Shown one piece after another: positions 38,398 to 60,171 of a stretch of 64,000 nucleotides of DNA. Within the stretch, counting starts at the first letter, position 1, and the number at the start of each line of letters is the position of its first letter. Origin of the DNA: a virus. The stretch is from IMG/VR virus record IMGVR_UViG_3300010885_017276, positions 60,056 through 124,055 of that record; one strand, given 5' to 3'. The translations under genes and the position numbers were made by a program. The notes beneath the pieces were generated by a model. The model saw only the letters and a program-made list of their open reading frames with translations, made no database searches and had not been told where the DNA came from.

Positions 38398-40335
38398 TTA
38401 TTTCTTTTTAAATCTGCCTCCAAATTTAATTGCTGGATTTTTTGCTTTTGCCTTAGATTTTTTAGTAGTATCAGGTTCGTACTGGCTTTGAACATATCTT
38501 GTATTATCTTGTCCTGAAAGTATACTAGGATCATACTCAGTTGCATACCCATTTCCAGTAAATTGTACATTTGGATTATATGCGTTTTGAGCATTCATCA
38601 TATTTACATATTTCCAATTGTTTGTTTGATCTCTAAATCGTTGATTTATCATATTTTGATAATCATTCTCCCAATTACCTAATCCTGTAAGAGTTCTCTG
38701 TTCGTAACTTAATGCGTTTTGGCCTCTATACAAATCTTGAGTGTCTGCAGCTTTTGTATTATATATATCTGCTGCATTTTGTGCTTGTGCATTATATCTG
38801 TTAGTATCTGAGATTTGCTTGTTTGTTCCAGTTATCTGATTTGCAATCAAACCTATACTAGATGCGGCTTTTTGTTCTGGTGACAATCCACTAAAGTCTA
38901 CAGCTTGTACAGCTCTATCTATCTCTGATATACCCTGTGTTGCAGAAATTTTAGCAGGATCTATTTGTCCTATTTTAGTATCTATTTTTGTAGATGGGTG
39001 CCATTGAGGCATGCTTATAGGTCTTATTGGTACACCTAAAACTCCCATAACTTTCTGCGTTTTACCTGCTGTAAAAGGTGCTACGTCCGCTGCTGCTTCT
39101 TCTTCTTCCGGTGTTGCCGCTGGCTCCTCTTGCTGTTTAACAGCTGTCATAGCTTGTAGTACTGCATCGTGGAATGGTCCTGGTTCAGAGTCTGTAGCAA
39201 GCTTTTTAATTTCATTATATCTAGCTTCTCCTGTTAATCCCTTCAGCTGCTCTTGAATATTTGGAGCAAACTTACCTTTATTTTCAGTTAACCACTGGTC
39301 TATCTTTTTAACTCTTTCTTGGTCTTTCCAAGTAGCATCTACTAATGGTAACCATGCTCTTTTATAATTAGTGCCTTGCCATATAGGATTCTTATTTATC
39401 TCTACAGGGGTGTAAGGTAAGGTTTTGACTGTTCTAGGATTATTAGTAAAGTCAGTTCTGTTTGTTGAGTTTAAAATTATATCTTTATTTGCATCCCATA
39501 GTTGGCTATAGTCCATTCCTAATGGAGATGAGCTCAAAGGGTTTCCAAATCTATCCACTGTATCTTTAGCGTCTACTACTCCATCCATATTCATATCTCC
39601 TCTGAGATATGTGCCTGCGGCTTGATACATTGGTAAACCAGCTAACTCAGCAGCTCTTTGTGGAGATATGCCATGTTTAGCCGCTAAAGAGCCTATGTAG
39701 CCACCGTTTGCTTTTTCATACTCTTCTCCCTCTTCTTGCTTTTTAGACATCTCTTGAATTTGAAAAACTACATTAAATAGTTGTTCTCTTTCTTTTTCAA
39801 TCGGTTTCTTTTTTTCAGCTAGCTCGTACAACTTCTTGTTTATGAAGTCAAGATTCAAGTTAGATGTATTTTTGTCTTTTACATCTTCTTTTTGCTTTTT
39901 CATAATCTCCATAAACTCTTCTAACTTATCGTTAATTTCGTCTAGGCCTGATTTTTTGTTGTATTTGTCTATAACTGTTGCGTAGGTATCATTTGGTCTT
40001 ACTGGAAGCCCAATGATCTTTTCCATTCTTTTGGCGGCATCTGCTCCAACTTTTAAGTGGTCACTAATTATCTTAGTCCCCTCCTCTAGCTTAACTGGCA
40101 TACCTCCCTTTTCGTGAGTTTTACCTTCTGCTTTTCTTACACCTCTAGAATCAAATATGTATTCCCCACCCTCAATTTCAGCATTAGGTTCTACTTCAGA
40201 CTCCTCTTCGTTTAAGGGGAATTGGTATTCCCCGGTCAACTCTTTGAACATTTGGTCTTTAGTACCACCGTCTTTGAAAAATAGGTTTTCAAATATTTTT
40301 TTTGGTATAGATATCTTATTTGTACTGGATGTCAT
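38398..40335 (-). CDS. Putative cargo protein with AEIEGGE...HEKGG domain and xxGG motifs
   Basis: NAEIEGGEY, GKTHEKGG, FKDGG, KANGG, MYQAAG and terminal KFGG. Confidence 0.7.
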   Translation of the reverse strand: MTSSTNKISIPKKIFENLFFKDGGTKDQMFKELTGEYQFPLNEEESEVEPNAEIEGGEYIFDSRGVRKAEGKTHEKGGMPVKLEEGTKIISDHLKVGADAAKRMEKIIGLPVRPNDTYATVIDKYNKKSGLDEINDKLEEFMEIMKKQKEDVKDKNTSNLNLDFINKKLYELAEKKKPIEKEREQLFNVVFQIQEMSKKQEEGEEYEKANGGYIGSLAAKHGISPQRAAELAGLPMYQAAGTYLRGDMNMDGVVDAKDTVDRFGNPLSSSPLGMDYSQLWDANKDIILNSTNRTDFTNNPRTVKTLPYTPVEINKNPIWQGTNYKRAWLPLVDATWKDQERVKKIDQWLTENKGKFAPNIQEQLKGLTGEARYNEIKKLATDSEPGPFHDAVLQAMTAVKQQEEPAATPEEEEAAADVAPFTAGKTQKVMGVLGVPIRPISMPQWHPSTKIDTKIGQIDPAKISATQGISEIDRAVQAVDFSGLSPEQKAASSIGLIANQITGTNKQISDTNRYNAQAQNAADIYNTKAADTQDLYRGQNALSYEQRTLTGLGNWENDYQNMINQRFRDQTNNWKYVNMMNAQNAYNPNVQFTGNGYATEYDPSILSGQDNTRYVQSQYEPDTTKKSKAKAKNPAIKFGGRFKKK

Positions 40336-42946
40336 AACTATCTGTTTTAGGATTGTATGTGTAGCTTTTTATTGTTTTACCCCTCAACATATTTAAGTAC
40401 TTGCCCCCCATTTTCATGGTCTGTTGTTGCATCTCTTGTTCTTGTTGAGGTGGGGCTTGTTGAGCTCCTTGAGATTGTTGCATTTGCTGCATAACCATTT
40501 GGATCATTTGAGAAGCCTCTTGTTCAGGAACTCCCATTTGTATAAGCTGTTGTAGTATCTCTTCTGGGTTAGCCCCTTGTTGTAAAGCTTCGGCTATTTG
40601 AGCTACAACTTGTCCCATTTGATTCCCTTGGTCTTGAGGTTGTTGAGCAGGCATTTCTTGTCCTCCCTCTTGGTAGTATCCCCCATATCCTAATTGTGGA
40701 GTTGCTTGTTGACCACCTTGAGCTTGTTGCATTGCAGCTTGAATTATTTGAACAGCTTGCTCTTGTGGTATACCGGCTTGAACTAACTGTTGCAAAACTT
40801 CTTGAGGTGATGCACCTTGTTGTAACATTGAAGCCACTTGAGCCATTATTTGTTGCATTTGGTCTCCACCACCTTGTTGTGGCATTCCTTGTTCTGGCAT
40901 ACCCTCTTGCGGAGCTTCCATTTCAGGTTGCATACCTCCTTCTTGGTAGTATCCAGATAATTGACGATATTGGTTTAAATTTTTATATTCATTTTCTCTT
41001 TCATTATACATATTATTGTATGAATTGCTAAGATCGTTTTCATAGTTTGCTAATTGCATATTAGTTCTATTCTCATAATTAGCAGCATCACTATCTTCTA
41101 CACCATTTACTCCCCCACCTTGATACGCTTGTCTAAACATAGGAGTCTGTTTTCCAGGATTAAAATCCATAGGACTACTTGTTATTAACAAATTTGGGTT
41201 TGGAGGTGTGTTTGGCACTCTCATTCTATTTGATTTAACATAGTCTTGGTAAGCCTTGTCGCTTGTAAGCATGAATCTACCCGGAGCTACTTTCTTTTTA
41301 GGTGCCATGACTACGACCTCTTTTAGTTGGCCGCCATAATATGTTCTATTATCTTCCATTTGTTTTTTAACGGGTGCTTGTACCTTTTTAACAGGTCCTA
41401 ATTTTTCACCTTTTAAAAGTTTATCAGCTAATGCCATATTAGCTTTTGCAGAACCATCTGTAAAGCCTTCTTTTTTAGCTGCACTCCAAGGTTTGCCTGT
41501 AACTTCTTGCCAAATTTGCCAAACTTCTTTTGGCTTTTGTTGAGCAGGTTGTGGTGTTTGCTGTGGTAACTGTGGTGCACTCGTTGTTGTAGGGATACCA
41601 AAACCATTCATTGTAGGTTCTGGTTGTGGGTAGATTGCAGGTTGTGGTACAAATCTTTGTTGTACTTCTTGTCTTTGTCTTACTTGATTTGGGTATTTGT
41701 TTACTAGGTCAGATTCCTCTTCTCCGTATAAATCCCCTTCTTGATACATTGGGTAGGATTTTCCCCCAAACTTGTAATAGCCTCCTTTTCTCATTTCTTC
41801 TTGTTGTTGTTGTGTTTCGTATTGTGGTAAATCTAGTTCTGGCATTTGGTATGATTGTGCTAGCATAGCGATTCTTTGCTTCATTGGCAAATCATCCATG
41901 TCATCCATATCTTCCATTTCTGTGTCATCTTCTATCTCTCCCCCTTCTTCTGCATATTGTGGTCTTCCGGCCATGTAGTCTCTTTGATTCTCATACATTG
42001 ATCTGGTTAAGCTTGCATTTCTTTTACCTGCCCCCATACCACTCAAGAAAGATTTAGTTCCTTGTAGTAGAGCGTTAGCTCCGAATAATGCAGCTTCCCC
42101 CGTTCTTCCTTGCCCTGCTGCTAATCCTGCACCAGTCAAGCTTTCACCTATACCATATCCTTCGTAAGGATTAGCAAATTGATATGATTTTTTACCACTT
42201 TCAAAGTCTTCTCTTGCATCTCTTTCATTCTGCTGGTTTTCTTGTTCTTGCCCTTTTTTAACATCTTCAACAACACTAGGCCCAGGGTTTTGGGAAAGTT
42301 GCTGTGCTGGTGTGCCATAAGTTAGGCCTGTAGGTTTATTTTTAATGTCAAGTGGTTCAACTTTTGGATTACCTAAATTACCAGTTGGTGACCAATTTGC
42401 AGGTAAATTCTGCGAAGCTTGATTTATGCTATATTGTGAATTACTCGTAATACTTGACGGTAAAGCTCCAATAGCTGTTTGTCCAAACGGGTTAGGTCCC
42501 AAATCTGGCATAGATGGATCTTTAAATCCACCCATATCTGCAGGGCCATTTTGAAACATAGGTAATTGTCTACCACCAAGCTCGTGCTTTTGCTCATACA
42601 TAGAGTAGGCAATTGCAATAGCTTGCTTTTGAGGACGGCCTTCTCTTATTAACTGTCCAATTTTATTACTTATCCAATCTTGTTTCCCACCTTTTTTAAA
42701 CATACGAGTTTCTGCTACATACGAAGCCCCACCAAATTTGTAATCTTGGCCCGGTTGCATAATAGTAGTGCCACCTATAGGATTCCCGTTTTGATCCAAT
42801 GGTGTCCCATACAATGGATAAGGAGTGTTTCTCATAGTTATATCCTCACTAGGTATATAGTTAATGAAGTTTTTTTCTGTATCATACCCCGGTGTAAACC
42901 CTGTTTTGTTTATGAGGCTAGATTTTCTTTTGGATTTTCTTTTCAT
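40316..42946 (-). CDS. Q/G-rich modular putative cargo protein with repeated xxGG motifs (likely start MKRKSK)
   Basis: About 13 xxGG-type motifs and a duplicated QQGA.P.E.LQQL module. The 43027 start would overlap the opposite-strand gene and its promoter. Confidence 0.75.
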   Translation of the reverse strand: MKRKSKRKSSLINKTGFTPGYDTEKNFINYIPSEDITMRNTPYPLYGTPLDQNGNPIGGTTIMQPGQDYKFGGASYVAETRMFKKGGKQDWISNKIGQLIREGRPQKQAIAIAYSMYEQKHELGGRQLPMFQNGPADMGGFKDPSMPDLGPNPFGQTAIGALPSSITSNSQYSINQASQNLPANWSPTGNLGNPKVEPLDIKNKPTGLTYGTPAQQLSQNPGPSVVEDVKKGQEQENQQNERDAREDFESGKKSYQFANPYEGYGIGESLTGAGLAAGQGRTGEAALFGANALLQGTKSFLSGMGAGKRNASLTRSMYENQRDYMAGRPQYAEEGGEIEDDTEMEDMDDMDDLPMKQRIAMLAQSYQMPELDLPQYETQQQQEEMRKGGYYKFGGKSYPMYQEGDLYGEEESDLVNKYPNQVRQRQEVQQRFVPQPAIYPQPEPTMNGFGIPTTTSAPQLPQQTPQPAQQKPKEVWQIWQEVTGKPWSAAKKEGFTDGSAKANMALADKLLKGEKLGPVKKVQAPVKKQMEDNRTYYGGQLKEVVVMAPKKKVAPGRFMLTSDKAYQDYVKSNRMRVPNTPPNPNLLITSSPMDFNPGKQTPMFRQAYQGGGVNGVEDSDAANYENRTNMQLANYENDLSNSYNNMYNERENEYKNLNQYRQLSGYYQEGGMQPEMEAPQEGMPEQGMPQQGGGDQMQQIMAQVASMLQQGASPQEVLQQLVQAGIPQEQAVQIIQAAMQQAQGGQQATPQLGYGGYYQEGGQEMPAQQPQDQGNQMGQVVAQIAEALQQGANPEEILQQLIQMGVPEQEASQMIQMVMQQMQQSQGAQQAPPQQEQEMQQQTMKMGGKYLNMLRGKTIKSYTYNPKTDSYDIQYK

Positions 42947-42952
42947 TTTTAT

Positions 42953-42982
42953 TTTGTATTTATAATATTCTTTGTATCTTTG
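42953..42982 (+). promoter_or_regulatory. Bacteroidota-type promoter for the antisense membrane gene
   Basis: TTTG-N18-TATCTTTG, 15 nt before ATG 42998. Confidence 0.7.
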
Positions 42983-42997
42983 TAAAAAATTTAAACT

Positions 42998-43498
42998 ATG
43001 GAAAATATTAATTATTGGGTTGAACACTCAAATCTTTTTTTTCATCAGATCTTTATGATTGTGATGGGTGCTCTTTATGCTATGTCTTTTGTTTTAGGTG
43101 TGTCTTATAAAGCAGTTAATATATATTGCTACTTTGTTTTTTACCCTGCTTCATTCTCTATGTTTTTGAAAAGTAAGGTTAAATACCTAATTCTGTCTTC
43201 TACTTTACTGTTCTTTTTTATTCCGGGGTTTGAATCACTATCCTCTAAATTTTTTGATGATTGTGTTATATTTTTAAACCACTCTGCTAAAGTTACACAT
43301 TCAAATTACATTAACATGTCTGTTTATCTTTGTGTTGTTTTACCCCTGCTTTTATATGTGCCATTTTTGTTATGGAGGTTTGGTAAAAAAATGTTCTTAA
43401 AAATTTTAATAACTTTTACATTAATTTGTTTTTGCTATTTACTATTTATTTATCCATTTTTTAAGCCTCTACTTGTAACGCTGCTTGATTTGCTCTAG
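42998..43498 (+). CDS. Polytopic membrane protein inserted antisense in the virion gene block
   Basis: Four to five hydrophobic segments, its own promoter, very T-rich DNA. Confidence 0.75.
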   Translation: MENINYWVEHSNLFFHQIFMIVMGALYAMSFVLGVSYKAVNIYCYFVFYPASFSMFLKSKVKYLILSSTLLFFFIPGFESLSSKFFDDCVIFLNHSAKVTHSNYINMSVYLCVVLPLLLYVPFLLWRFGKKMFLKILITFTLICFCYLLFIYPFFKPLLVTLLDLL

Positions 43499-46400
43499 TA
43501 TTTTTGCATACTCTTTTTGCATATCTGGTGATTCTGCGATCTGTCTAGTTAGCTTCTCTAAAGATTTATCATCTGTAGGGACTACATCAGAAGCTCCAGA
43601 ATCATCAGCTTTGTATTTTAAATTAGCCATTTGTTTTATAAGACCTGGTGTTAACGGTATTCTATCGTATATTTCAATTGGTGAACCAAAGGCAGATTCA
43701 GCAACTGCTAAATCATCTTTCCCTTTTAAATCCCAATTATCATAAAAACTTAGATACGGATTACCCTTTTTGTCAAAGTCTATTCCAAATGTAGCATTCC
43801 ACATTACATTTTTAGGATCTCTAAACCCTGCTTTATTTATTTTTTCACCGCCTTTTTTTCCACTTGTTTTATCTTTTGCAATAGTTTCTGGAGTTATCTC
43901 CCCGTTAGCCAATCGTTTAAATAAGTTTGTGTGTGTAGCAGCTATTTTTATATAATCTGCAACATCTTCTGGATTCTTAAATGTAACATTGGTGTCTGAG
44001 TTATTACCTGCTTTAAATGATGATGCTGTAAAAGTATCATATTTTTGAGGTAATCCAGAGTACATTCTGTAGATGTCTTCTCTCCTATTACCTTTAACTC
44101 CAGGAAGTCTTTTTACTTGTTTGTTTTTACTTTTTTCAGAAGCTAACCTATCAAAAAATGTAAATTGGGTTTTCCCCTCTTCATCTACAGTCGTGTCTGG
44201 TGCGTATCCTTGTGGATTAGTTGAGTTTACTATTCTATCTTTAAGCTGTAATGGTAATACTTTATTCCATTCACCTTTATTTTGTGTTATTTGTAAGAAG
44301 CTGATATTCTTTTCTTTTCTAATATCAGATAAAGATTTATTATCTAATAGGTATTTGTATGACCCCTCTGTCTCATTGCTTGGTCCTACAGTATCTAATT
44401 TTGGATTGTACTGTAAGTTATAAGGTAAATATTCGGAAGCAGTCCCCTTTGCTGAGTTAATAAGTTGTTGCTGTTTATCATCAAGGTATTCAGTGGTTCT
44501 TGTTAAAAAGCCTTTTTGTTCAGGTTTACGTAGTCTAGCAATTCTTTCCTCTTGCTCTAATGATAAGTTGCTTTTTGGTGAACTCCCCGTTATTTCAAAC
44601 TCCTCTAGGGCTTTCTTTGTCATTTTACCGAACTTGCCGTCTATCCCGTCTTTATTTTTACCATAGTCCCCTAAATCATATCCTAAATCATATAATTTTT
44701 TTTGTAAAGTCATTACTTCACTCATTTTAACAGCTTTATGTATGTCTGGGTCTATCTCTTTTAACTCTTTCATTTTTTGGTTGACTTGAGAGTTAATACT
44801 AGCCATAGTCTTTTTATCTCTAAGTTGCTTTTCTATCTTTGGCTCAAATTTTGAAATTGCATCTCTTACTACTACATACTCTTCTTTTTTCTCTTTGTAT
44901 GGAACCTTTATTATCTTTTCTTCAGAAGATGGTGTAACTTTATCTTGTATAAATGTAGGTATAGTACTTTTTTCTACTAGCCTGTCATTTGCTTCGTCTT
45001 TAAGTTTTAGCTGCATGCTTGAAATATTATCTCTTGTAACTATGTTATTACGTAAAGAGATAGGATTTCCTATACTAGTTACTACTCCAGCAGGTGTTAG
45101 TACTGTTTTCTTTTTACCTACTACGTTAACTTGATCTAGCTCCCCACCAAACCAAGTTTCTCTATCAGCATTTTCTGATATATCCCCTGATTGTAAGTTT
45201 CCACTTTTGTATAAGTCTGCATACTCTTGAGAATCAGTTCTTACCTTTCTCATAGTTCCGTCTGCATCTTGTAGGGTAACTATTTTTACTGGGTTTGCTT
45301 CTTTAGCCCCCCCTTCTTGATACATAGGTAATCCATAAGAACCTCCATTTGACATGTGTGTAAGCATGTCTATTAGTTCATTATTAGAGTATATCCTTTT
45401 TAGTTCGGAAAGAGGTATTTGTTCATTTTGTGTAAGGTAACCTCCGTTTTCGTATTTGGCTTTTATTTTTCTTTCTTGCTCCAACATTTGTTTAGTTGGC
45501 TTTTTGCCAGAGCCTTTATTAGCTCTAATGTTGTCCCACAATCCACGTCTAGAATATGAACCATCAGCACGTTTAATTAGCTCACCGCCATTTTTAAATT
45601 TTCTATTTACATCTTTTAAATATATCCTATCATATATTTCAAAAGGTTTTGTTAGACCTAGTGCTTCTCCTGGATTCATACCTGATCCAGTGCCTTGATC
45701 AAATTTATCATAGTATGAAATATATTCTCCTTTTTCATCTTCTCCTTTTCCTAATATATATCTACCTATTGCATTTGAATGGTGTTCTGATCCTTGCTTA
45801 ATAGTTTTATGTGCGTCTTTTCCTGCACTACTATATCCATTAACTTGCCAACTATCATTCCCTAGTTTACTTTCCCCTTTATCTAATTTTCCAGAAAGCA
45901 CTCTTTCATAATTATCTAAAACTTCATTTACAAATTCTCGATCATGATTTAAAGATATATATTTTGCATTTTTATCTTTAGATGTTGATGGTTTATTTTG
46001 ACTTTCGACTAATACACCATGTTCTAATGGCTGTCCTCCATAGTATCTATACAGATCTCCTAATGGTCCATACTGTTCATATCTATTATACCCCGGTTGA
46101 TTACCTGATGCAAAACTTGTTAGCCCAGGTATATTGCTTAAAATGCCCGGATCAAAATCTTCCCTAGTAGTTATAGGGTTTTGTTTACCACCTTTTTGGT
46201 AGTATCCCCCCATTTCTTTTTTAGTGAACTTTGGGTTATTTGGATTAAATGGTTTATAGTCATTAGTATTATGGATACGTCCATACCATGTACTACTATA
46301 ATTAGGATGAGGCCCTTGTGTTTTTAGATCCCAAGTTGAACCTTTTGGTGCAGTATTTTGATAGTACCAATCCCTTCCTCTATTCATCAAAATTCTTCTT

Positions 46401-49400
46401 TGATTTTCTGGGAGCTTTCCTATTGTATTATTGTATTCTTGATCAAATGAATATGGTGCGTTTTTTCTACCCCCCCAAGTACCATCCTTATCTAATTTAG
46501 ATGGATCATACTGTTTATAGTATTCTTGTAATGCAAACGCCCTAGGGTCTTTTGTTATCTTATTATTATCTTTATCCCAGCCAGCATTGAAAACAAAGTC
46601 CATTGCTTCGCCTATCTCCATTGCACTTGCTTTAGGCATTATTTTTTGTACCTGTGGATATATGCTATTCATTAATACCTTTCTGTATACAGGGTCGCTA
46701 TAATCAGGATTGCCATTAGTGCCGTCTAAAGGTGCACCACCTGGACCACCTCTTAACTGTTCGTATTCTAATATTTTATCAGCTTGATGTGCAACGCTGT
46801 CTCTTTTTGTGGTGTAAGTACTCGGTTTATTATTGTAAACAATCGGTGCTGTAAAAGGTTTTTTTGATTCCGCTGAAAACCCTGCATTTTGGTATTCGGG
46901 TAAATCTACTTCACCACCTTCTGCCCAAGTACCAAATCTTTTATGCCAGTATAGTGGGCTAAAGGGATCATTAGCTTTAGCTGAATCTCTACCTCCCATT
47001 CTATCCCAGAATCTTTCTTTTCTGTCTTTTGAACCGTGTTGAGAAAAGTCTTTCATACCATCATATCCTCCATGGACTATCTTGTATTGGTCTCCTTTTC
47101 TAGCAAGTACCATCCATTTTTTACCTGGTCGTGTTGATTGCTTTTTTGCTCCAACTTTAGTAAACCCTGCATTTTTGTATCTGTCTGGTATTCCCCCCTC
47201 TTTGTATTGTGGGGTAATTGTTACATTGTCTCTTAGTGTGTTTACCCTTTCGATTGCTTTAGGGTTTGTAGAATTACCATACTTATTTTGCCAATATGCA
47301 TTTTGTGCATCTGCTTGTTGCATTGCTCTTAACGCTGTTTGTTCATCAGCATTTTGTAGATTATTAGCATAATATGGTTGAGATCCATCCATTCTCATAC
47401 CTGAATAATTTACATTATATGAATTAGGACTTACTGCTTCAGGTCTTATAGTTGATATTGGGGTTTCTATGTTTAAATTTACTAGACCTTGAGGTTTTAG
47501 ATTGGTTTGTATTGATTGTAATTTAGGTCTTTGAACTATTACTTGTCGTTCTGGTTTTTTCCAAACAGGAAATTGATTACCATTATTTTCTCCTACAATA
47601 CTAAGTGCAGCATAAGGTAAAACTTTAGATGTTTTAACATTTTCATTAACTGCATCAAATCCAGCTTGTAATGGTTTCCAATACTCATCACGAGTACCAT
47701 CTGGGTTTACAGCTTTTTTAAAATACTCAAGATTTTTATAATTATTTTTATTATATAATTTCTTCTTCTCTTTTTCTGTATATGTATTATCTAGAAATTC
47801 TTTACTAACTTCTACATCATAACTATCTAAATTTTTTTTTCCCACTGTGGTTTTTTTCAATAAATCGAAAGCTTTTCTTCCTCTTTTATATGAAGACAAA
47901 CTATCCTGATAAGCTACATATCCAGGATCTTTTTCTGATTCTACATATACTATACCTGCTTTTTGGTATTGATTAAGTGCTCCCCCTTCTTTGTATTCTT
48001 GGAGTCCTTGGTATGTATTAGTCATAGGAGCTACTTGCTTGTAGTTCCTTGCAAAGTAATCTGCTTCTTCTGGAGAACTAAATACTATATCCTCCGAAGA
48101 TGCTCCGGGGTTTTCAAAGTATTGTAGTTGTTCTTCCCCTGTGTCTTGTAATAAAGGTCTAGCATAGTTACCCGTAGAAGACATATAATGTGTCCCCATT
48201 CCTTCAGGTGTCATACCTGTTTTAGGCATAGCTTGTGACATTCTTACAACAGATGGGTTTTGGAAAGCGTTGCCCATACCTATCTTAGATTTCATCATAC
48301 CGGTCATGGCTGTGTTATAATCATCGTAGGTTTCTTCCATCATTCCGGGCTCTCTTTCTCTTACGGTTTCATTAAACCACTCTCCCCCGTCTTGGTATAT
48401 TGCCTTAGAATAATCCTTTAGATTATACTTTTTATTTATGTAGTTCATCAATACAGGATCTGATCTTAATACCTTGTAATCTTCCATTACCATTCTTTGG
48501 TAATTTGGATCGTTTGGGTTATAGTTTTTTAATCCTTTTTCTTTTATAAAATCAACAGCCATATCAAATGAATCTGCCCCCTTTATATTTTTTGTATCTT
48601 TTAGTTTATTGTCGTATTGCTCTAACAGTCTTGGGTGTTCCGCCAAGTGTTTTTTCATTGCGGCTTCGTCCTTTATACTAAAATACCAGCCTTGATTATT
48701 TGAAAAAGATTTTACCCCCGGTACATCTTTGTCTGCTAGGAATTTTAGTGGGCTTTCTGGTCTGTAGTCTTCGCTTGTATTCCATGCGGAAGCCATTGCT
48801 TTCTTGCTAGTCTCTACAAACTTACCTACTTGTTTACCCTCTCTAGAGGAATAACCTTTTCCAAATACAGACTCTCTACCTATTATTGCTAATAGTTCAA
48901 ATGGATCTATATTCTTTTCTTTAGCAGTCTTGAAAGCTTCATCTACTATATTAGGGTTTATACTTGCGTTTCTGTATCTACCTTTAGTTAGTAATAATCT
49001 TTGTGAATTATTTTTTATGTAGTCGTTTTGGTTAAGAGTGTCTGACTTCTTTTTATTAATATAGTCATACTTTTTCTCCATGCTGGCAAAATCAGTAGGC
49101 TTTGTATCTAGAATTTTTTTATTCTTTGCTATCTTTTCCTCTTCATCATCTTCCCCCGTAAAAAACTCTGTAACAGTTGATATCACAGGATCTACATAAG
49201 TATTCCAGAATCCACCCCCAGTTTGATACTCTGGCATTTGTGGTGCTTGGTATTGGGGTAGTTCTATCTGTGGCATGCTGTATACTGAATTGTCTACAGG
49301 TGCTTGTTGTTGTGGTGCTTGTTCTTGTTGCTGTGCTTCTTGGTATTGGCTGTTTAGCTCATCTAAGAAGTTCTTTTCGTTTTCTTTTTGTGCTAGTTCG

Positions 49401-50014
49401 TTTTTTGCTTGTACAGCTTCTGCATCATCCGGTGATTCTGTGTCTTCTGATGAACTACGTGTGTTCATAAAAGCATCAAACTCGGCTCTTTGTTGAGGGC
49501 TTAATGCATCGTAGTTTTGTGTTAGATAAGATATATCTAAGGTAGGTGCTTGTTCTGATATGTAGTCTACATTTTCATAAGGCGTACCTGATAAAATGGA
49601 ATTAGCAACTCCTACCCTTTGTCCAACTGATTGTTTTTTAGCCCACTCTGCTGGTTTTTCGTAGTGATTCATAAAAGCTATAGCAGCCTCTTGTGGATTT
49701 TTAGCACTATTTAACCCCTGCATAGCCTTAGCATATGCCGGACTATTAAGTTCTTCTACTACGTAATCTAATTGAGTTGTAAGGTTATCGTACCTTTCCC
49801 CTCTTTTTTTAGCAAAGTCTAATAGTCCTTGCTTTCTTTCACTGTGCCATTGGGCTATTCCGATAGATCCCATATTATCAGCCTTACCCACTACTGTGGT
49901 ATCAAAATTTGATTCAGCTTGTAAGTTCCCCACTATACCTGCAGCTTGCACAGGAGTTAATCCTCTACTAATTAAGTGGTTATAAGCAAATCTACTTTTA
50001 TCGTTTATTGGCAT
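43469..50014 (-). CDS. Modular virion protein: N-terminal phage-tail lysozyme, SLT-like, PG-binding and other modules separated by xxGG motifs
   Basis: AAGIVGNLQAES...GIAQW; DPFELLAIIGRES; LQKKL...GY...DGKFG..T..AL; 13 xxGG/xxAG motifs. Confidence 0.85.
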   Translation of the reverse strand: MPINDKSRFAYNHLISRGLTPVQAAGIVGNLQAESNFDTTVVGKADNMGSIGIAQWHSERKQGLLDFAKKRGERYDNLTTQLDYVVEELNSPAYAKAMQGLNSAKNPQEAAIAFMNHYEKPAEWAKKQSVGQRVGVANSILSGTPYENVDYISEQAPTLDISYLTQNYDALSPQQRAEFDAFMNTRSSSEDTESPDDAEAVQAKNELAQKENEKNFLDELNSQYQEAQQQEQAPQQQAPVDNSVYSMPQIELPQYQAPQMPEYQTGGGFWNTYVDPVISTVTEFFTGEDDEEEKIAKNKKILDTKPTDFASMEKKYDYINKKKSDTLNQNDYIKNNSQRLLLTKGRYRNASINPNIVDEAFKTAKEKNIDPFELLAIIGRESVFGKGYSSREGKQVGKFVETSKKAMASAWNTSEDYRPESPLKFLADKDVPGVKSFSNNQGWYFSIKDEAAMKKHLAEHPRLLEQYDNKLKDTKNIKGADSFDMAVDFIKEKGLKNYNPNDPNYQRMVMEDYKVLRSDPVLMNYINKKYNLKDYSKAIYQDGGEWFNETVREREPGMMEETYDDYNTAMTGMMKSKIGMGNAFQNPSVVRMSQAMPKTGMTPEGMGTHYMSSTGNYARPLLQDTGEEQLQYFENPGASSEDIVFSSPEEADYFARNYKQVAPMTNTYQGLQEYKEGGALNQYQKAGIVYVESEKDPGYVAYQDSLSSYKRGRKAFDLLKKTTVGKKNLDSYDVEVSKEFLDNTYTEKEKKKLYNKNNYKNLEYFKKAVNPDGTRDEYWKPLQAGFDAVNENVKTSKVLPYAALSIVGENNGNQFPVWKKPERQVIVQRPKLQSIQTNLKPQGLVNLNIETPISTIRPEAVSPNSYNVNYSGMRMDGSQPYYANNLQNADEQTALRAMQQADAQNAYWQNKYGNSTNPKAIERVNTLRDNVTITPQYKEGGIPDRYKNAGFTKVGAKKQSTRPGKKWMVLARKGDQYKIVHGGYDGMKDFSQHGSKDRKERFWDRMGGRDSAKANDPFSPLYWHKRFGTWAEGGEVDLPEYQNAGFSAESKKPFTAPIVYNNKPSTYTTKRDSVAHQADKILEYEQLRGGPGGAPLDGTNGNPDYSDPVYRKVLMNSIYPQVQKIMPKASAMEIGEAMDFVFNAGWDKDNNKITKDPRAFALQEYYKQYDPSKLDKDGTWGGRKNAPYSFDQEYNNTIGKLPENQRRILMNRGRDWYYQNTAPKGSTWDLKTQGPHPNYSSTWYGRIHNTNDYKPFNPNNPKFTKKEMGGYYQKGGKQNPITTREDFDPGILSNIPGLTSFASGNQPGYNRYEQYGPLGDLYRYYGGQPLEHGVLVESQNKPSTSKDKNAKYISLNHDREFVNEVLDNYERVLSGKLDKGESKLGNDSWQVNGYSSAGKDAHKTIKQGSEHHSNAIGRYILGKGEDEKGEYISYYDKFDQGTGSGMNPGEALGLTKPFEIYDRIYLKDVNRKFKNGGELIKRADGSYSRRGLWDNIRANKGSGKKPTKQMLEQERKIKAKYENGGYLTQNEQIPLSELKRIYSNNELIDMLTHMSNGGSYGLPMYQEGGAKEANPVKIVTLQDADGTMRKVRTDSQEYADLYKSGNLQSGDISENADRETWFGGELDQVNVVGKKKTVLTPAGVVTSIGNPISLRNNIVTRDNISSMQLKLKDEANDRLVEKSTIPTFIQDKVTPSSEEKIIKVPYKEKKEEYVVVRDAISKFEPKIEKQLRDKKTMASINSQVNQKMKELKEIDPDIHKAVKMSEVMTLQKKLYDLGYDLGDYGKNKDGIDGKFGKMTKKALEEFEITGSSPKSNLSLEQEERIARLRKPEQKGFLTRTTEYLDDKQQQLINSAKGTASEYLPYNLQYNPKLDTVGPSNETEGSYKYLLDNKSLSDIRKEKNISFLQITQNKGEWNKVLPLQLKDRIVNSTNPQGYAPDTTVDEEGKTQFTFFDRLASEKSKNKQVKRLPGVKGNRREDIYRMYSGLPQKYDTFTASSFKAGNNSDTNVTFKNPEDVADYIKIAATHTNLFKRLANGEITPETIAKDKTSGKKGGEKINKAGFRDPKNVMWNATFGIDFDKKGNPYLSFYDNWDLKGKDDLAVAESAFGSPIEIYDRIPLTPGLIKQMANLKYKADDSGASDVVPTDDKSLEKLTRQIAESPDMQKEYAKILEQIKQRYK

Positions 50015-51177: not shown

Positions 51178-54100
51178 TTAGACTCCAATTCCATCTACTA
51201 TATTCCAGGAATATGTCCCAACAAGTATTGCTCTACCAGCAGCTCCTGGGATTGTGTCATAATTAATATTGCTAAAATCTATATTTATAGGAGTTTGAAC
51301 TGATGGTAATGAACTCCAACCATCGTAGATTGCGGCAAGATTTGCTGATGAGAAGTTTGTATTACTTTTACCCCACATAAATCCTTCAGATGCAGCTGGG
51401 TTATCAAATAATGTGACAGATGAAATATTCCAACTTCCTATATTTTGGTCAAATGCGTATGCACTATTAAACATAGCTGCCATATTGGTTACATTGCCTA
51501 CATCCCAATTACCGATTGGTTGATTAAATAAAACTGCACCAGCGAACATAAGGTTCATAGTTATAACTGAAGAGGTATCCCAATTACCAATTGGTTGGTT
51601 AAATGAACCTGCACTTAAAAATACAGAAGTCATATTTTCAACTGAAGTTGTGACCCAATTATTAATATCAGGGCTTCCTCCATTATTAAATGCTGGATTA
51701 TTTCTAAACATGCCTTGAATAGTTTTAACATTAGACGTATTCCAACTTCCTATATTTTGGTTAAAGACCACTGTTGGTCCACCACCACCTCTATCAAACA
51801 TACCAGATAAATCTTCAGCATTAGAAATATCCCAAGTTCCAATTGGTTGATTAAATGCAGAAGCCTCTGAAAACATAGCGTTCATAGTTATAACTGAAGA
51901 GGTATCCCAATTTGTAATATTTTGATTGAACATAAGAGCTAATCGGAACATAGTACTCATATCCGTAACATTACCTAATGTTGAAGTATTTCCAACTGTA
52001 GTTCTTTCCCAGTTAGCCAGAGGTTGATTAAACACCAAACATCTATAAAACATCCCAGACATATTTGTAACAGTGCTAACTTTCCAAGCTGCCAAGTTTT
52101 GATTAAATACAAGACAGTTTGCAAACATTGCTGAAGTCGTAATAGCTGAAGACATATCCCAATTATTTAACCCAAATCCTACTGCTCCTACTGGCATACC
52201 ATTGTTAAACTTATCACAACCATTAAACATGTTTAAAAAGACTTTACAATTTGAAACATCCCAATTAGATACTGCACTATTAAAATTAGAGCAATTATTA
52301 AACATTCTATTAAAACCTGCTGTGACAGGAGAGGGGTCAACATAAACTTGTGAAACATCCCAAGAATTTAAGTTATTGATAGTTGTAATAGATGAACATC
52401 CAGTAAACATGTAATCAAATCTCTGATTTGTATAGGCTAAAGGTGTATCTACGACAGTTGATAATGTAAGATTAGTACATCCCCAGAAAGCCCCTTCAAT
52501 TTTAGATTTCCAAGGACCCCATCTTAAAATACTTCTAATTTTTGATATAGATACAGCATTAGGGTTAGCCATAAAGCTGGGGTTATAATTATAAAATGCC
52601 CATCCTTCAAGCCTTCCGTAGACTCTAACCTCGTGGTCTCCAATATTTGGATATGTATGAGTTATATTTGCAAGTTGATTATTTGAAGTTATAGTTGGAT
52701 CAACTTGATAATCCCAGTGGATAGTTCCAGAGTATGTACCACCTACATTTAAGTATGGTAGTGTTATACTTTCATTTGGTGTAGTTGTTCTGAAAACTGC
52801 TATAAATGGTATAAGGCTTACTTCATCACTAGCTACATTGTCTACTCCACTTATATCTGGATTACTTGATGTTACACTAGCTATGTTTAAGAAATCTCCT
52901 GTTGCATTCATAGTTACAGTGAGTGTAAGTGTTGCACTAGCTTGTGGTGCTAGAGTACCTATTGTCCAAGTTGGAGCAACCCATGTACCTGTTGAAGGTG
53001 TGGCACTTACAAGAGTATAACCTGAAGGTAGTTCATCGTTTACTACTACATCATTAGCTTGGAAACCACCAACTAAAGGTTCATTATTTGTAACTGTTAC
53101 TGTAAATACTACAGTACCTCCTACAAATTGTTCAAAGACATTAGCTGTTTTAGTTATTGTTAGGTTGTCAAAACAGTCTGCTGGTCTTTGTATAACACCC
53201 TCACATAGTTCTGTCAAAGGATTATAAGAATAACCATCTGGACAGCTTGGGTCATTTTCACATAGACTCACATTGTAGAAGTATCCTTGGCCTTCTATAA
53301 ACTCTATACAGTCCTTTACAGGGACGTAGTCTTTTTTGGTAATGAATACCCTTCTATGTCTACTGTCCCATCCCATTGATATACCTACTCCATTGTAAGG
53401 ATTATCTATGTCTGCATTTTTTATAGTGCGGAGAATTTTAAATGGTAGATGCTCTTTGAACCAGTTTCTCATTCCACTTGGTTTATCTCCTGCAACAGAA
53501 GATATTTCTGTCATACCTTCTCCTCCAGATGGAACTTGGATTACTTGTCCTCTTTTTGCATCTACATAGAAATGTCCGTATTCATTAGATGAATAAGCAA
53601 AATTTTGAGTGCCTCCAAATCCTAGTTTAGTGTTATGGAAAGATGTGCTTCGTCTTTGGAAGAAAGAATTTCCGCCTAAGAACTTAGCTGTAACTTGTCC
53701 ACCGTCATCTACTTTGCTGTCTACTTTATTATATAGTACAGATGTATTTTCAAATCTAACTAATATAGCTTGGCTTTCTGCATCTACTATATCTTTTAGT
53801 TTACCGTAGTTAGACGGAAAATCAAAGCTGTCTAATGGTCTGTATATTAACCAAGGATCATATAATGAATTTTCTGAACTATCCGGCAAACTGGCAATAA
53901 TACCATTTGGCATATCTTGTATACAGTCGTAGAAAGATTTGTTGTAATCATTTGCTAGAGTTCTACTTCTTATTAAAGAGCCTCCAACAGAATATGAGCT
54001 GTTGTATTTGAATACGTTTCTGTCTCGAATTGATACTGTCTCTTCTTGAGTCCATTCTCCTAAATCTCCTACCAATGGGTAGAAACTATCTTTTGGATCT

Positions 54101-57100
54101 CTACCTGCGTATCTGTAGTTTGTGTTTATTCTTGTCTCTGTCAAGAAGCTAGGTACTCCGTAGTAGTACAGATAGAATTTGCTAGGCGGTTCATAGTAGT
54201 TACCTCCATGGGTTGTGCCTCCGTCAAATGCTAAACCGTAGTCAATATCTGGAAATAAAACACTTCCAGAAGCAAAGTTAGGATTTATCTCATAACTTAC
54301 ATAGAACTTAGGGTTTCTACCTATATTGCTATAAAAGTAGTAGTTATAAGGCATCAAGTCTGCCTGTTTCATAGCCGTAACTAAGAACATTGGCATCTTT
54401 CTCTTTAGTGTATGTCTTGATATAAATGTATCTCCTCCAAATATAGATAAGCAACTTTGTAGAGGATTTAATAAATCTCCTACATGAGATGTGGTTTTCC
54501 ACTTAATAGAATTAAGCGTACCATATTGTGAAGGCAGGTAATTTTTGATAGCTACATACGGAGAAGCGATGTTTTTTAATACTTCAGAACTTCTTCCTGA
54601 TTGATCTCCAACTCCTGCAAGTGTCGCCCAAGTTAAGCTGCTGTCTCCACTAGATTGGTCGTAGTTTCTGTATGTAGGTGGGTAAGACATGATATGACTG
54701 CCAAATGATAAAAATACTGACTCTTCTCTATCTAGATTATTTACAGTTATTTTTTCTGCTGTAACCTGATTTGTAAGTATGTATCTTCCATCTTTTAGGT
54801 ACTTAATTATATTAGTCCCTCTAAGAAGATTACCTTCCGTTTGGGAAGCTTCTAGGTAGTTGTAATTACCTTCACTAAAGTAGTAATAAGCAAAGTTGTG
54901 AGCAGCTCCTAAATCTCTGAATATTTTTAACCACTCATATCTTTTTTGACCGTATCTAAATACTATTCCTTCTATTGTCATAAGTGTTCCGACAAGTACA
55001 GTTGCTGCTATAGATGTTGCGGAACCTGTAAAGTTTTGGTCAACCCCCCATGTCCATCCTCCCCAGTATCCTGTGCGGAAGTTTTTACTACTTTCTATTA
55101 ATAGTTCAGATGTTTTTAGTACTACTTCTAATGCCACTTCTAATGCTGCAAGAGTTCCGGCTAAGTCTTTAGCTTTTGCAGATAAAATAGTCCATTTTGG
55201 ATGTCCTTTTACTTCATCAAAGTGTCCTCTTGACATACCAAAAACATATCCTTGTACAGACATTTCTGAAGGTAACGTAGGTCTTTCGTAATCTGTCTCC
55301 GGAGAATGGAAAGTGTAGTTTCTATTTGTTTGGCCCCACACTACACCAAGTGCATCTGTTGATGTATCCGAATCTAAGTTTAAGCCATCTTCTGCATAGG
55401 TATTGTAAGGGTAATTTGAGTAGTGTATAGTTTTACTTTTTTCTGTATACTTTCTCATATCATACAATAACCCGGAGGCCACTATACTTCTATTTAGTTC
55501 TATATCACCTCGGAATATTTCGTACTTAGTTATTTTGTTTCTGTCTTCTTTTGTTATAAGACCATTTGATACAGCTATGTCTAAGAATGAGTTTATAACT
55601 GTCTCATCTATAGTTACACCTAATGGAAATACAGTACTTTCTCCAAATGGGGATATTTGAGTATCCGTCATAAATGGAGCTACTTTGTTATCTGGGAATC
55701 TAAAGTGTCGTATATTTCTACAAGTAAAATCTACTACTTTTTTTGAAACTGCCCCAAAAGATTCAGTTTTAAATTTGTAGTACCCGTCAAGTTCTCCATC
55801 AGTAAATGCGTCTTCAAATTTTGATTGTATTGATAATGGTATTTGAGAAGAGGCTATATTTAGAGTGGAAGAATTAAATAACTCATCGTTGTCTGCGTAT
55901 GTTTGCTCACTTTCCCAAAATGCAAAGTCCCCTCTTTTAAATGGTATTGCCTTACAGGCTTGAACTATAGGTTGTTGAAATGTACACTCTGCTGTATATA
56001 TAAACTTCTTAGCAAGAACAATGCTATCCCAAGTAATATCTATTCTTGAATATTGTATATCTCTTTTAGTTATTGTATAACAACCCTTTGTTGGTTTTAC
56101 TATAAACCTATTTTCAAAAGCTATGTTATAATAAGTGGTAGAAGGGCCCATAACTGGAGCCTCAATATAATTTTTATCTGAGTTAGTATCTATAAGATCT
56201 GACTCTATAAGGGTATCTATTACTACATAGTACTTTTTAGAAAAAGAGTTTGCAATATATGTAGGAGATGGTGAAGGTAGTATTGTTACTGTCGAACAAC
56301 TTACATTTGTAGGGTCTGATAAAGTTACATTTAAGTCGTAGTTATAAACCCCTGGAGAAATCTCCACTCTCTCCATTAATATCATTATTCCATTATCTAC
56401 ATTATTTACGATAAATGATAAGTAGGGTGTTGAGTCAGAGCAACTTTTAAATAAGGATACTCGGTAATTGTTATTTGGATTAACGACAGCAGTATCATTT
56501 GTTATTAAAGATTCTAATTTTTGTTTACTTAGGTCTACTATCCATTTTTTTCTATCTTCTACTTCTCCTTTGAACCATAGAGCATTCTTATGCATATACT
56601 TAGTATATCCAGATGCAGACAAGGACATTGTAAATCCTGAGCCTACACCAGGAACCGCTTTTTCTATATACGCTACTGAAGATGCATTATTTGTTATAGT
56701 TATGGTTGCTCCAGATCTAGTTACATTACAACCTATGTTAGCTGCTTCTATCGCAGCTTCATGTAATGTCATAAAGTTTATTGCGGTCTGGGTATAGGAT
56801 GTAGCATAAGTGGCAGTATAAAATGCTCCATCTATGTATATATCAAGTGTATCACCTGCTGTAGGTGCAGTAGCTAAATCCTTATTTACGAAAGTAAATG
56901 ACTGTGTATAATTTGCTGTTGATCCTGTAGTATAAGCTAAATTTGATTTTGAAGTATCTATAACTTCTGTTAAATCATCGCTTATTTTATAGTTGTTAAA
57001 ATAGCCTTGAGCATTATTTGTGGTTGTATCATTTTTAAGAATTATATCTAATGCATCAATACAATTTTCATTTGCAAAACTTGAATTTCTTACTAATACT

Positions 57101-59304: not shown

Positions 59305-60171
59305 TTATAAGTTTGGAAACATTCGTTCAAATCTGTTGGTCTCGTGAATGATCTTCCTTTTAATATTATTGCTCCAGTTTCTGCCTAAAGATTCAAATTT
59401 TACTTGCGTCATTGCAAGCCCAAAGTATTCTCTTTCTTGTTGTTTGATGTACTGTAGTTTATTAACCAAGTTTACATCATCATCATTTACCCAAAGGTTC
59501 TCTAAGATTTTTCTCTTGACATAATACATCAAGTACTCTTGTAATTGTGTAAAGTCCGGGATATAGATATCTCCACTGTCATCTGTAGGTAATGCATTAT
59601 ACTGCATATAGATAGAGCCCTCTTTGAAATTAGCTTGTATCTTGTTACCAAGTATATTGATTTCGTATGGAGAAGAGGCTGTGAGTTGCTTTTGTAAGTT
59701 TTGACAACCTTGACTACAGTATTCTTTTTTAATACCTTTTGTTAGTCTTAGTAATACCGGATTTTTATATCGGATATTAATGGTTGTATCTGTGTTGTAG
59801 TATACTTTTTCTAGTATCTCTTTGTAGTCTGTTTGTTTATGAGAGTTAGACAAGTTGTCCCAAACATAAGTGTTTTCTATTCTTTGTGTCCAGTATTGAG
59901 AGTCTTGTACATTAGCTTTAGTACCAGCTTCAAACTCATGGCTATCTGCTGTACATTTTACTGCAAACTTCAAACTCCAAAAGTCTTCCGGTAGTTCTGC
60001 TTCTCCGTTTGTAACTTCCACTACTTTTTCTGCAAGCACTGTTATGTTTGATCCAAATCTTTTTAGCTCTGTTTTTATCCAAAGGTTCAAAGACCTGTAA
60101 TCAATTAGTCCACTTTCTTCGTACTGTCTAAAATCTGATAAGATCTCAGCAATCATTTGCTTTCTAGTCAT
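59305..60171 (-). CDS. Tail tubular / ring protein (P22 gp4-like)
   Basis: AELPEDF, Y.I..N.I..NF..G.I...Y...P.D..G...IPD motifs; lies immediately upstream of Tstab as in crAss-like phages. Confidence 0.75.
   Translation of the reverse strand: MTRKQMIAEILSDFRQYEESGLIDYRSLNLWIKTELKRFGSNITVLAEKVVEVTNGEAELPEDFWSLKFAVKCTADSHEFEAGTKANVQDSQYWTQRIENTYVWDNLSNSHKQTDYKEILEKVYYNTDTTINIRYKNPVLLRLTKGIKKEYCSQGCQNLQKQLTASSPYEINILGNKIQANFKEGSIYMQYNALPTDDSGDIYIPDFTQLQEYLMYYVKRKILENLWVNDDDVNLVNKLQYIKQQEREYFGLAMTQVKFESLGRNWSNNIKRKIIHETNRFERMFPNL

Follow-up and report, generated by a model that had tools for sequence, protein, structure and literature searches.

A recurrent Gly-Gly junction peptide between the modules of predicted cargo proteins in a crassvirus-type phage genome

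In the gut and in the sea, few viruses are as abundant as phages of the crassvirus type. We analyse here a window of 64,000 nucleotides, the last 64 kb of a complete viral record of 124,055 bp with direct terminal repeats (IMG/VR record IMGVR_UViG_3300010885_017276, positions 60,056 to 124,055), and in it three adjacent open reading frames (ORFs) whose products are strings of small modules joined by a short peptide ending in Gly-Gly, which we call the seam. The cargo proteins of crassviruses and the polyvalent proteins are known kinds of protein; a seam peptide serving generally as a code for junctions is new to the literature that we searched. Searches on the motif, on Gly-Gly cleavage in phage virions and on Cellulophaga phage proteomics, with supplementary tables outside their scope, returned nothing on these seams.

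In crAss001 the ring protein gp43 is followed by the muzzle gp44, the cargo proteins gp45 and gp46 and then giant RNA-polymerase-related proteins, and the two cargo proteins, C1 (gp45) and C2 (gp46), are carried in the virion and believed to leave it in a partly unfolded state (Bayfield et al. 2023, PMC10172136). The window holds, in the same order, a ring protein, a muzzle-type giant gene, cargo genes and very large virion proteins. We place the three ORFs as cargo genes because gene order and ring-protein families match crAss001; judged in this way they occupy the position of the crAss001 cargo (ejection) genes, and the phage probably carries the three proteins in its particle and injects them. 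Unlike the gene order, the proteins themselves lack significant sequence or profile similarity to the crAss001 cargo proteins: crAss_CARG1 (PF25725) has no match at E ≤ 5 in the 645-amino-acid (aa) protein, the 876-aa protein or phi4:1 gp040, and none genome-wide in six frames at E ≤ 10; crAss_CARGO2 (PF25712) has none in the three proteins and none in the genome at E ≤ 10; and hhalign of the 645-aa protein gave one weak C-terminal match to gp45 (E 0.0087, probability 4.6%) and nothing for gp46.

Polyvalent proteins, in turn, combine many unrelated domains in one virion-delivered chain and shuffle these domains rapidly (Iyer et al. 2017, PMC5512222); the accessible text of that paper describes no junction peptide, unlike what we find here. 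The 2181-aa product of the first gene likewise consists of several unrelated domains in one chain, within the two to fifteen that define the class, and RadC, which is typical of the class, lies in a neighbouring 2571-aa ORF. A difference is that MPTase, RadC, ART and other such domains were not found in the three ORFs.

Short recurring peptides also direct the processing or packaging of other viral proteins. African swine fever virus (ASFV) pp220 and pp62 are cut by pS273R, and adenovirus precursors by adenain, at Gly-Gly-X sites, both enzymes being clan CE cysteine proteases. The seam resembles these sites in being short, in ending Gly-Gly (Ala-Gly/Gly-x) at module borders and in having a hydrophobic residue a few positions upstream; it differs in that no C48, C5 or C39 peptidase was detected here, that cleavage here is hypothetical, and that the present virus is a tailed phage of a bacterium. 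The T4 internal proteins and the phiKZ inner-body proteins are packaged via cleavable motifs whose last residue is Glu and whose cutting enzyme is a prohead protease of the head module. Shared with them are a short recurring motif and short N-terminal leaders on proteins that are probably packaged in the head and injected, but no prohead protease gene was found here among the family matches listed for the head-module and further ORFs. Polyubiquitin offers a further likeness, in which complete small proteins stand head to tail, each ending in Gly-Gly, with a short tail after the last; here, however, the modules are mutually unrelated, and the stand-alone forms of one of them, DUF5754, end without Gly-Gly in 89 of 111 cases.

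Small modules joined at a recurrent seam

The three genes, all read from the same strand, are the following.

43469..50014, minus strand: predicted cargo polyprotein 1, 2181 aa, with a tail lysozyme, DUF5754, a ~48-aa module and PG_binding_1
40316..42946, minus strand: predicted cargo polyprotein 2, 876 aa, with 8 seams, UBA-like modules and the PHROG 2423 module
38398..40335, minus strand: predicted cargo protein 3, 645 aa, homolog of phi4:1 gp040 (PHROG 36695)

The first protein begins with a phi29-gp13-like tail lysozyme (Phage_lysozyme2, residues 10-138), followed by DUF5754 (~942-1034), the ~48-aa module (1478-1525) and PG_binding_1 (1765-1806); lenient Pfam scans of seven of its segments added nothing beyond DUF5754 and PG_binding_1. 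Its modules are shared piecemeal with 227 large proteins, and precomputed Pfam labels on its relatives include ART-PolyVal (three relatives), YkuD, amidase, SLT, CHAP and SET. The second gene can be read as 903 aa from a GTG at 43027 or as 876 aa from an ATG at 42946, 27 codons later; it most likely starts at the ATG, as the database gene call and all homologs do. Its product contains two UBA-like three-helix modules and a ~35-aa helical module (PHROG 2423); many of its homologs carry the precomputed label PF26555. Over 55% of its length the third protein shares 35% identity with phi4:1 gp040, a virion protein according to its annotation from tandem mass spectrometry, and its family numbers 598 relatives at E ≤ 0.001 when sequences are represented at 50% identity.

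By eye, two more muramidase- or transglycosylase-like modules can be discerned in the 2181-aa protein (~330-540 and ~1046-1270), without a Pfam call. Its regions ~1277-1477 and ~2060-2140 seem, again by eye, to share a common repeat, each closing in an E-I-Y-D-R-I-like element, which suggests an internal domain duplication. A C-terminal element of ~25 residues, with two Gly-Gly pairs and an acidic end, is common to five large relatives and may be a shared terminal tag.

An earlier note on this DNA had reported about 30 copies of a motif of the form xxGG, mostly headed by an aromatic residue or Met, in the three ORFs, and every copy that it listed is present close to where it was placed. The loose pattern [YFMW]xx[GA]G gives 14 + 8 + 2 = 24 copies, and the total comes to about 30 once copies without an aromatic residue or Met at that position (KEMGG, HELGG, AEEGG, KANGG and KFGG) are added. 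The positions of the 24 loose-pattern copies and of two non-canonical ones are listed below; in the 2181-aa protein all 14 fall within residues 263-1569 and none in the last 612 residues.

49214-49228, 48383-48397, 47981-47995, 47954-47968, 47192-47206, 47165-47179 and 46913-46927, minus strand: seams 1-7 of the 2181-aa protein, loose pattern
46880-46894, 46187-46201, 45821-45835, 45584-45598, 45440-45454, 45341-45355 and 45308-45322, minus strand: seams 8-14 of the 2181-aa protein, loose pattern
42728-42742, 42686-42700, 41780-41794, 41762-41776, 41111-41125, 40934-40948, 40661-40675 and 40403-40417, minus strand: the 8 seams of the second protein, loose pattern
40264-40278 and 39613-39627, minus strand: the 2 seams of the 645-aa protein, loose pattern
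~39700-39705, minus strand: non-canonical seam of the 645-aa protein, Gly-Gly 211-212, invariant in the family
~38416-38421 (GG codons), minus strand: non-canonical seam of the 645-aa protein, C-terminal KFGG, conserved

These numbers far exceed what composition predicts. With 300 shuffles per protein as the null, the stricter pattern Y[QKE]x[GA]G occurs 10 times in the 2181-aa protein (0.3 ± 0.5 expected), 5 times in the 903-aa reading of the second (0.2 ± 0.5) and once in the 645-aa protein (0.1). The same pattern is absent from each of the other 23 window ORFs of at least 150 aa. Over the whole 124,055-bp genome, [YF][QKE]x[GA]G occurs 11 + 6 + 2 = 19 times, all in the three ORFs, against ~0.7 expected from shuffles, with no copy in the genome's other 264 ORFs (≥60 aa). 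For the 645-aa protein, the earlier note's assignment of seams is upheld by the family alignment described below, although the protein taken alone is only weakly enriched.

The consensus was derived from 750 distinct copies, the aromatic and glycine positions being fixed by the search pattern, and reads (G/L)(P/G)(Y/M)-[Y 54%, M 27%, F 16%]-[Q 49%, K 19%]-[E 26%, D 22%]-[G 86%, A 14%]-G, with little conservation after the second Gly. G or P stands two to three residues upstream in ~30% of seams, and seams are often tandem, without a module between them. The claim that many copies are preceded by LP[M/E] was overstated: there are ~5 such copies, and in the family logo Pro occurs two positions before the aromatic residue in 30%.

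If the seams are the places at which modules are joined, as the cassette swapping proposed in the earlier note implies, the breakpoints of module gain and loss should lie at the motif. We aligned all pairs of 100 homologs of the second protein and collected internal insertions or deletions (indels) that measured 25 aa or more and had flanks that aligned well, which gave 2592 events, 961 of them distinct by position and 700 after dropping segments with the same ends. The end of a motif lies within 2 aa of the junction in 249 of the 700 indels, compared with 70 ± 8 for random placement (maximum 95 in 500 trials), and motif ends lie at both junctions in 48 of the 700, compared with 2.5 ± 1.6 (maximum 9). 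Of two decoys, a Q/E-rich pattern gave 114 vs 105 expected and P-x-x-acid-acid gave 1 vs 9. Gly-Gly without the aromatic residue is also enriched at junctions (157 vs 67), as is the reversed pattern (110 vs 26), an excess that we attribute to the tandem arrangement of seams. Because conserved motifs anchor alignments, part of the single-junction excess may reflect gap placement; the excess at both junctions is independent of this effect. The breakpoints thus lie at the motif well above the null, and the cassette-swapping part of the earlier reading is therefore supported.

The 2181-aa protein behaves in the same way in BLAST comparisons with 114 large relatives. Alignment ends cluster at 1035-1045, 1270 and 1520-1525 and alignment starts at 936-940 and 1472-1477, and all five clusters are seam-type GG sites, the one at 1270 being the non-canonical KEMGG; an additional cluster of starts at 1069-1072 lies ~25 aa past a seam. 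Two modules of the first protein are met again in the second protein's family, DUF5754 in 27 members and the 48-aa module in 54, so modules move between cargo genes.

Stand-alone relatives of the modules show where their natural ends are. We compared DUF5754 with 111 short homologs of 63-191 aa (the stand-alone proteins having 90-98 aa). In 26 of the 111 the protein starts within 5 aa of IPxRYK, the sequence that follows the seam in the fusion, and 89 of the 111 end at the Trp that is the aromatic residue of the next seam in the fusion. Seventeen longer ones have Gly-Gly within 2 aa before IPxRYK, 6 of the homologs have W-x-x-GG plus a short tail, and some proteins of 135-190 aa are mini-chains of two or three modules with the same seams between them. 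By this comparison the seam positions coincide with the natural ends of stand-alone DUF5754, and the fusions are thus end-to-end joins of whole genes to which about four residues ending in Gly-Gly have been added. For the ~35-aa helical module, which follows the second seam of the middle protein, 75 further viral contigs match over that stretch alone; in 74 of these the frame is a stand-alone ORF of 43-166 aa, and the six residues that open the stand-alone protein align with the seam. PHROG 2423 can itself be noted as a family of stand-alone 43-85-aa ORFs whose basic N-terminus is conserved and which occurs in no fewer than 74 other viral contigs.

On these comparisons the three proteins consist of small modules fused end to end, and several of these modules are complete stand-alone phage proteins elsewhere. 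Nearly every junction carries (G/L)(P/G)(Y/M)-[YFMW]-[QKE]-x-[GA]-G, and this peptide travels with the modules as they are gained, lost and exchanged.

Conservation and structural setting of the seam

The motif is characteristic of the families and not only of this genome. In 104 proteins, of which 100 are homologs of the second protein from the database and four come from the window, there are 567 copies where 34 are expected, and in the 114 large relatives with segments in common with the 2181-aa protein there are 306 where 38 are expected, 9 of the 114 being without any. In phi4:1, which together with phi17:2 (both Cellulophaga phages) is the nearest cultured relative, gp040 has four copies and its neighbour proteins none or one. 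An epsilon-crAss phage protein with a shared N-terminal part has 4 loose copies vs 1.2 expected. The Gly codons of the motif are mixed (14 GGT, 13 GGG, 12 GGA and 4 GGC), and selection therefore acts at the protein level, on the peptide and not on a DNA signal; on the same ground we reject an origin at the DNA level, be it a recombination signal or a ribosome-binding-like GGAGG.

Individual seams are deeply conserved. In an alignment of the second protein with 85 homologs, where mean column identity is 23%, G86-G87, G124-G125 and G670-G671 are invariant. The conserved seams of the 645-aa protein lie at residues 20-24, 208-212 and 237-241. Across its family of 80 sequences G211 is present in 80 of 80 and G212 in 79 of 80, with F, M or Y five residues before the G212 position in 68 of 80. 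Seam 20-24 is present in 54-55 of the 55 sequences with residues at that column, and in 28 of the 55 sequences having it the seam lies 19-31 aa from the start, so that at this one seam the family alternates between a short leader and an extension. At the other end of the 645-aa protein, KFGG is followed by a short basic tail, an arrangement kept in 4 of 4 close relatives.

An AlphaFold2 (AF2) model of the 876-aa protein, built with 85 sequences, has a mean predicted local distance difference test score (pLDDT) of 53.7, with 559 of the 876 residues below 50 (~64% predicted disordered). It is confident for a beta-plus-helix unit (31-122), a helical unit (471-520), the two UBA-like three-helix bundles and a C-terminal hairpin. 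Five of the eight seams lie in linkers with pLDDT below 50; of the other three, two are in loops of the N-terminal unit that is modelled with confidence, and the third is in a helix predicted only weakly. One idea that we tried and rejected was that seams act as 'stickers', being the sole aromatics of a low-complexity region: only 8 of the 49 aromatics in the disordered parts of the second protein are in seams.

The model of the 645-aa protein is well folded (mean pLDDT 80). Its seams 20-24 and 208-212 lie in short loops between helices, seam 237-241 stands at the start of a stretch predicted as disordered, and the tail that holds the C-terminal KFGG is disordered as well. The Gly pairs 56-57 and 77-78 are inside a confident beta unit, beside the invariant E55, E58 and H74. 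That unit, residues 49-95, is worth noting in its own right: E55, E58, H74 and G78 are invariant in 80 diverse members, and could form a metal or catalytic site; fold searches returned no match for it. With Foldseek, neither the AF2 model of the 876-aa protein nor that of the 645-aa protein matched a PDB entry at E ≤ 0.001, the wide VIA-align search with the 645-aa model gave generic helical matches alone (Z ≤ 7.1), and the ESM Atlas gave no usable match for the 876-aa protein. The N-terminal part of the 645-aa protein has a by-eye likeness to the portal-bound domain of crAss001 gp45, which we record as a lead only.

The cargo protein gp45 of crAss001 likewise has aromatic-x-x-GG peptides beside its two structured segments. 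It has 6 motif-like sites vs 2.6 expected, a weak enrichment that 18 of 500 shuffles reach, whereas gp47, a 2341-aa RNA-polymerase-related protein, has 7 aromatic-x(1-2)-GG sites vs 2.0 expected and none of 500 shuffles reaches 7. One peptide of gp45, AFGG, lies at 425-428; the Pfam family crAss_CARG1 (PF25725) spans 424-555 (E 2.3e-66), and segment 425-552 was modelled as one portal-bound domain (PMC10172136, accessible text). The text of PMC10172136, so far as it is accessible, nowhere mentions seams, cleavage or proteolysis. A gel of crAss001 virions has bands at 150, 270 and >300 kDa (PMC6235969, accessible text), which fit uncut giants including gp47, as read from band sizes and not from band assignments.

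Junction, cleavage site or linker

The earlier note had offered a maturation protease, releasing many small effectors from precursors, as one explanation of the seam. This part fared less well than cassette swapping, since no Gly-Gly-specific peptidase was found and the large crAss001 virion proteins appear at full size. The other explanation offered there, a repeated capsid-packaging tag, may apply, but no binding partner came to light. Six-frame genome searches gave no candidate for Peptidase_C48, C5, C39 or MPTase-PolyVal (C48 and C5 at E ≤ 10), a divergent enzyme being conceivable. The ORFs of the head module contain no peptidase by Pfam or PHROGs, Pfam on 66 + 63 = 129 further ORFs gave no peptidase family among the matches listed (25 of 31 and 16 of 16 families), and in phmmer searches of four neighbouring giant proteins against PDB sequences RadC was the sole match. 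The acidic 370-aa protein between the portal and the capsid protein is without a Pfam match, and its ESM Atlas look-alikes are weak (0.84-0.85: a scaffolding protein, at 0.85, Prp protease and a T7 capsid assembly protein) and are leads only. The seam also differs from leaders of the C39 type, having Gln or Lys at position -4, vs the hydrophobic -4, -7 and -12 of double-glycine leaders. The only peptidase-like signatures near the cargo genes are in the 2571-aa protein: a RadC-like JAB domain (residues 1534-1639, E 1.4e-18) with HxHx7Sx2D intact at 1601, and HELAH at 1359, the sole HExxH among the large virion proteins, which matches no Pfam peptidase model. A complex prediction of the RadC-like JAB region with zinc and a 61-residue seam-bearing stretch scored 0.00 without controls and counts neither way.

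Because the Gly-Gly pairs are invariant across families while the surrounding linker sequence varies, we infer that the seam is a recognised junction element and not a passive linker. The account that we tentatively put first, with a confidence somewhat short of even, is that the seam stays uncut and works as hinge and handle. In the virion an uncut seam would be a flexible hinge bearing an aromatic/Gln handle; the hinge would let each module fold and unfold separately during storage and during threading through portal and tail, and the same handle on every cassette would serve a common, putative partner in packaging or ordered extrusion. G or P upstream in ~30% of seams would place the aromatic-Gln core between flexible residues on both sides, as expected of a displayed handle. 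By analogy, the AFGG inside a modelled domain of crAss001 and the full-size bands of its virions lend this account some backing. Several points weigh against it. The partner of the handle is hypothetical. Conservation halts after the second Gly, Ala-Gly is tolerated and seams are often tandem, a pattern common among sites that a protease recognises from the non-prime side. Stand-alone DUF5754 naturally begins with the residue that follows the seam, as cleavage would give, and the N-terminal leaders ending in a seam (28 of 55) and the short C-terminal tails resemble removable pro-pieces. The crAss001 analogy is itself stretched, in that this phage is distant, its proteins lack significant similarity to those studied here, its motif enrichment is weak and its joint is part of a fold, the gp45 joint being judged from the published residue range and not from coordinates.

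The seams could instead be true cleavage sites, at which a yet-unrecognised phage or host protease cuts the injected polyproteins into a dozen or more effectors and wall-degrading enzymes; we consider this doubtful but well worth keeping in view. In its most specific form, which we likewise regard as unlikely though by no means far-fetched, the chains would be packaged whole and cut after Gly-Gly in the host, either by a host protease or by a co-injected phage enzyme, for which the 2571-aa polyvalent protein with its HELAH and RadC-like JAB would be the candidate, freeing peptidoglycan hydrolases and small effectors. Cutting after injection would be compatible with full-length proteins in virions, and it draws on the cleavage-site shape of the motif (upstream-side conservation ending in GG or AG, often in tandem), on the position of most seams in disordered and accessible linkers of the modelled second protein, on the match between the position after the seam and the native N-terminus of DUF5754 (and, to within 2 aa, that of the 48-aa module), and on the HELAH and intact JAMM motif in an adjacent virion-type protein. 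Zincin-like peptidases are, moreover, predicted to release domains of injected polyvalent proteins autoproteolytically, but RadC domains are argued in the same source to be, in all probability, nucleic-acid enzymes that lack a groove for a ubiquitin (Gly-Gly) tail (PMC5512222). Around HELAH no peptidase model of Pfam matches, MPTase-PolyVal included; no cleavage product has been seen anywhere; and in the ~35-aa module, where the seam is the first six residues of the native protein, a cut would remove part of that protein.

Cutting could instead take place earlier, inside the capsid, with a prohead protease acting on the seams during head maturation and with leaders and seams doubling as targeting signals. 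T4 and phiKZ package cargo through such cleavable motifs, and the leaders of 19-31 aa that end in a seam (28 of 55 family members) and the seam plus short basic tail with which the third protein ends (4 of 4 close relatives) would suit this. We nevertheless hold it to be improbable: the search of the head-module ORFs yielded no prohead protease, and a single gene, that of the 370-aa protein without a Pfam match, separates the portal gene from the capsid gene; no peptidase family appears in the 129 further ORFs, among the matches listed; and crAss001 virions have the 270 and >300 kDa bands and one uncut joint (PMC6235969 and PMC10172136, accessible texts). An equally slim chance is left for the seam as a mere spacer or scar, in which Gly-Gly is what gene fusion or a DNA-level exchange hotspot leaves behind and no protein partner is involved. 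That seams lie exactly at fusion points, and that the aromatic residue of at least one is the module's natural last residue (the terminal Trp of DUF5754), is what such a scar would give, but the mixed Gly codons with no DNA motif, the Gly-Gly pairs that stay invariant amid variable linkers, the tandem seams with no intervening module and the defined consensus before the glycines all argue against it.

Neighbouring genes and implications

The virion genes form a long minus-strand block that runs from ~63.8 kb down to 15.9 kb of the window. Upstream of the cargo genes and transcribed in the same direction are genes for the terminase, the portal, the acidic 370-aa protein and a 564-aa virion structural protein, taken to be the capsid protein; downstream of the three cargo ORFs are proteins of 950, 2001, 2571 and 1917 aa. 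Features of this block that bear on the gene order are as follows.

59305..60171, minus strand: CrAss_Ring_1, tail ring protein 1 (Pfam, E 1.3e-15)
51178..59292, minus strand: 2704-aa virion protein in the muzzle position (PHROG 37948, family of phi4:1 gp042)
50094-51155, minus strand: 353-aa ORF, matching the C-terminal end of PHROG 37948
21687..29402, minus strand: 2571-aa polyvalent virion-type protein with the RadC-like JAB domain and HELAH

CrAss_Ring_2 has a Pfam match among the ORFs of the genome's second half. The order of the ring, muzzle-position and three cargo genes is kept in 4 uncultured relatives; a megablast of the locus against the phage collection gave no match. Between cargo genes 1 and 2 there is a gap of 441 nt, occupied by a very hydrophobic 166-aa ORF on the opposite strand (42998-43498, plus strand), which may be an inserted membrane-protein gene or spurious; in four relatives the two genes are separated by only ~10 nt, and no promoter-like or terminator-like sites were found in 42800-43600. 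Elsewhere in the genome, outside the window, are a Cpn60-type chaperonin, RecA, PhoH, thioredoxin, ribonucleotide reductase and a family A DNA polymerase, and the phage-encoded chaperonin could aid the refolding of injected cargo.

The cultured Cellulophaga phages carry the seam in a known virion protein, so the question of whether it is cut or uncut is directly testable. A single junction peptide on every cassette would amount to a rule for how these phages assemble and exchange the functions that they inject. If the seam is cut, this would be a new phage polyprotein system, pointing to an as yet unrecognised protease and forming a phage counterpart, in crAss-like and phi4:1-like phages, of the Gly-Gly-X processing of ASFV and adenovirus, and the seam would double as a universal adaptor for plugging any small gene into the cargo. 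If it is uncut, the handle should lead to the partner in packaging or extrusion. Cut or not, the seam would provide a simple signature for cargo genes and for module borders in the genomes of uncultured phages.

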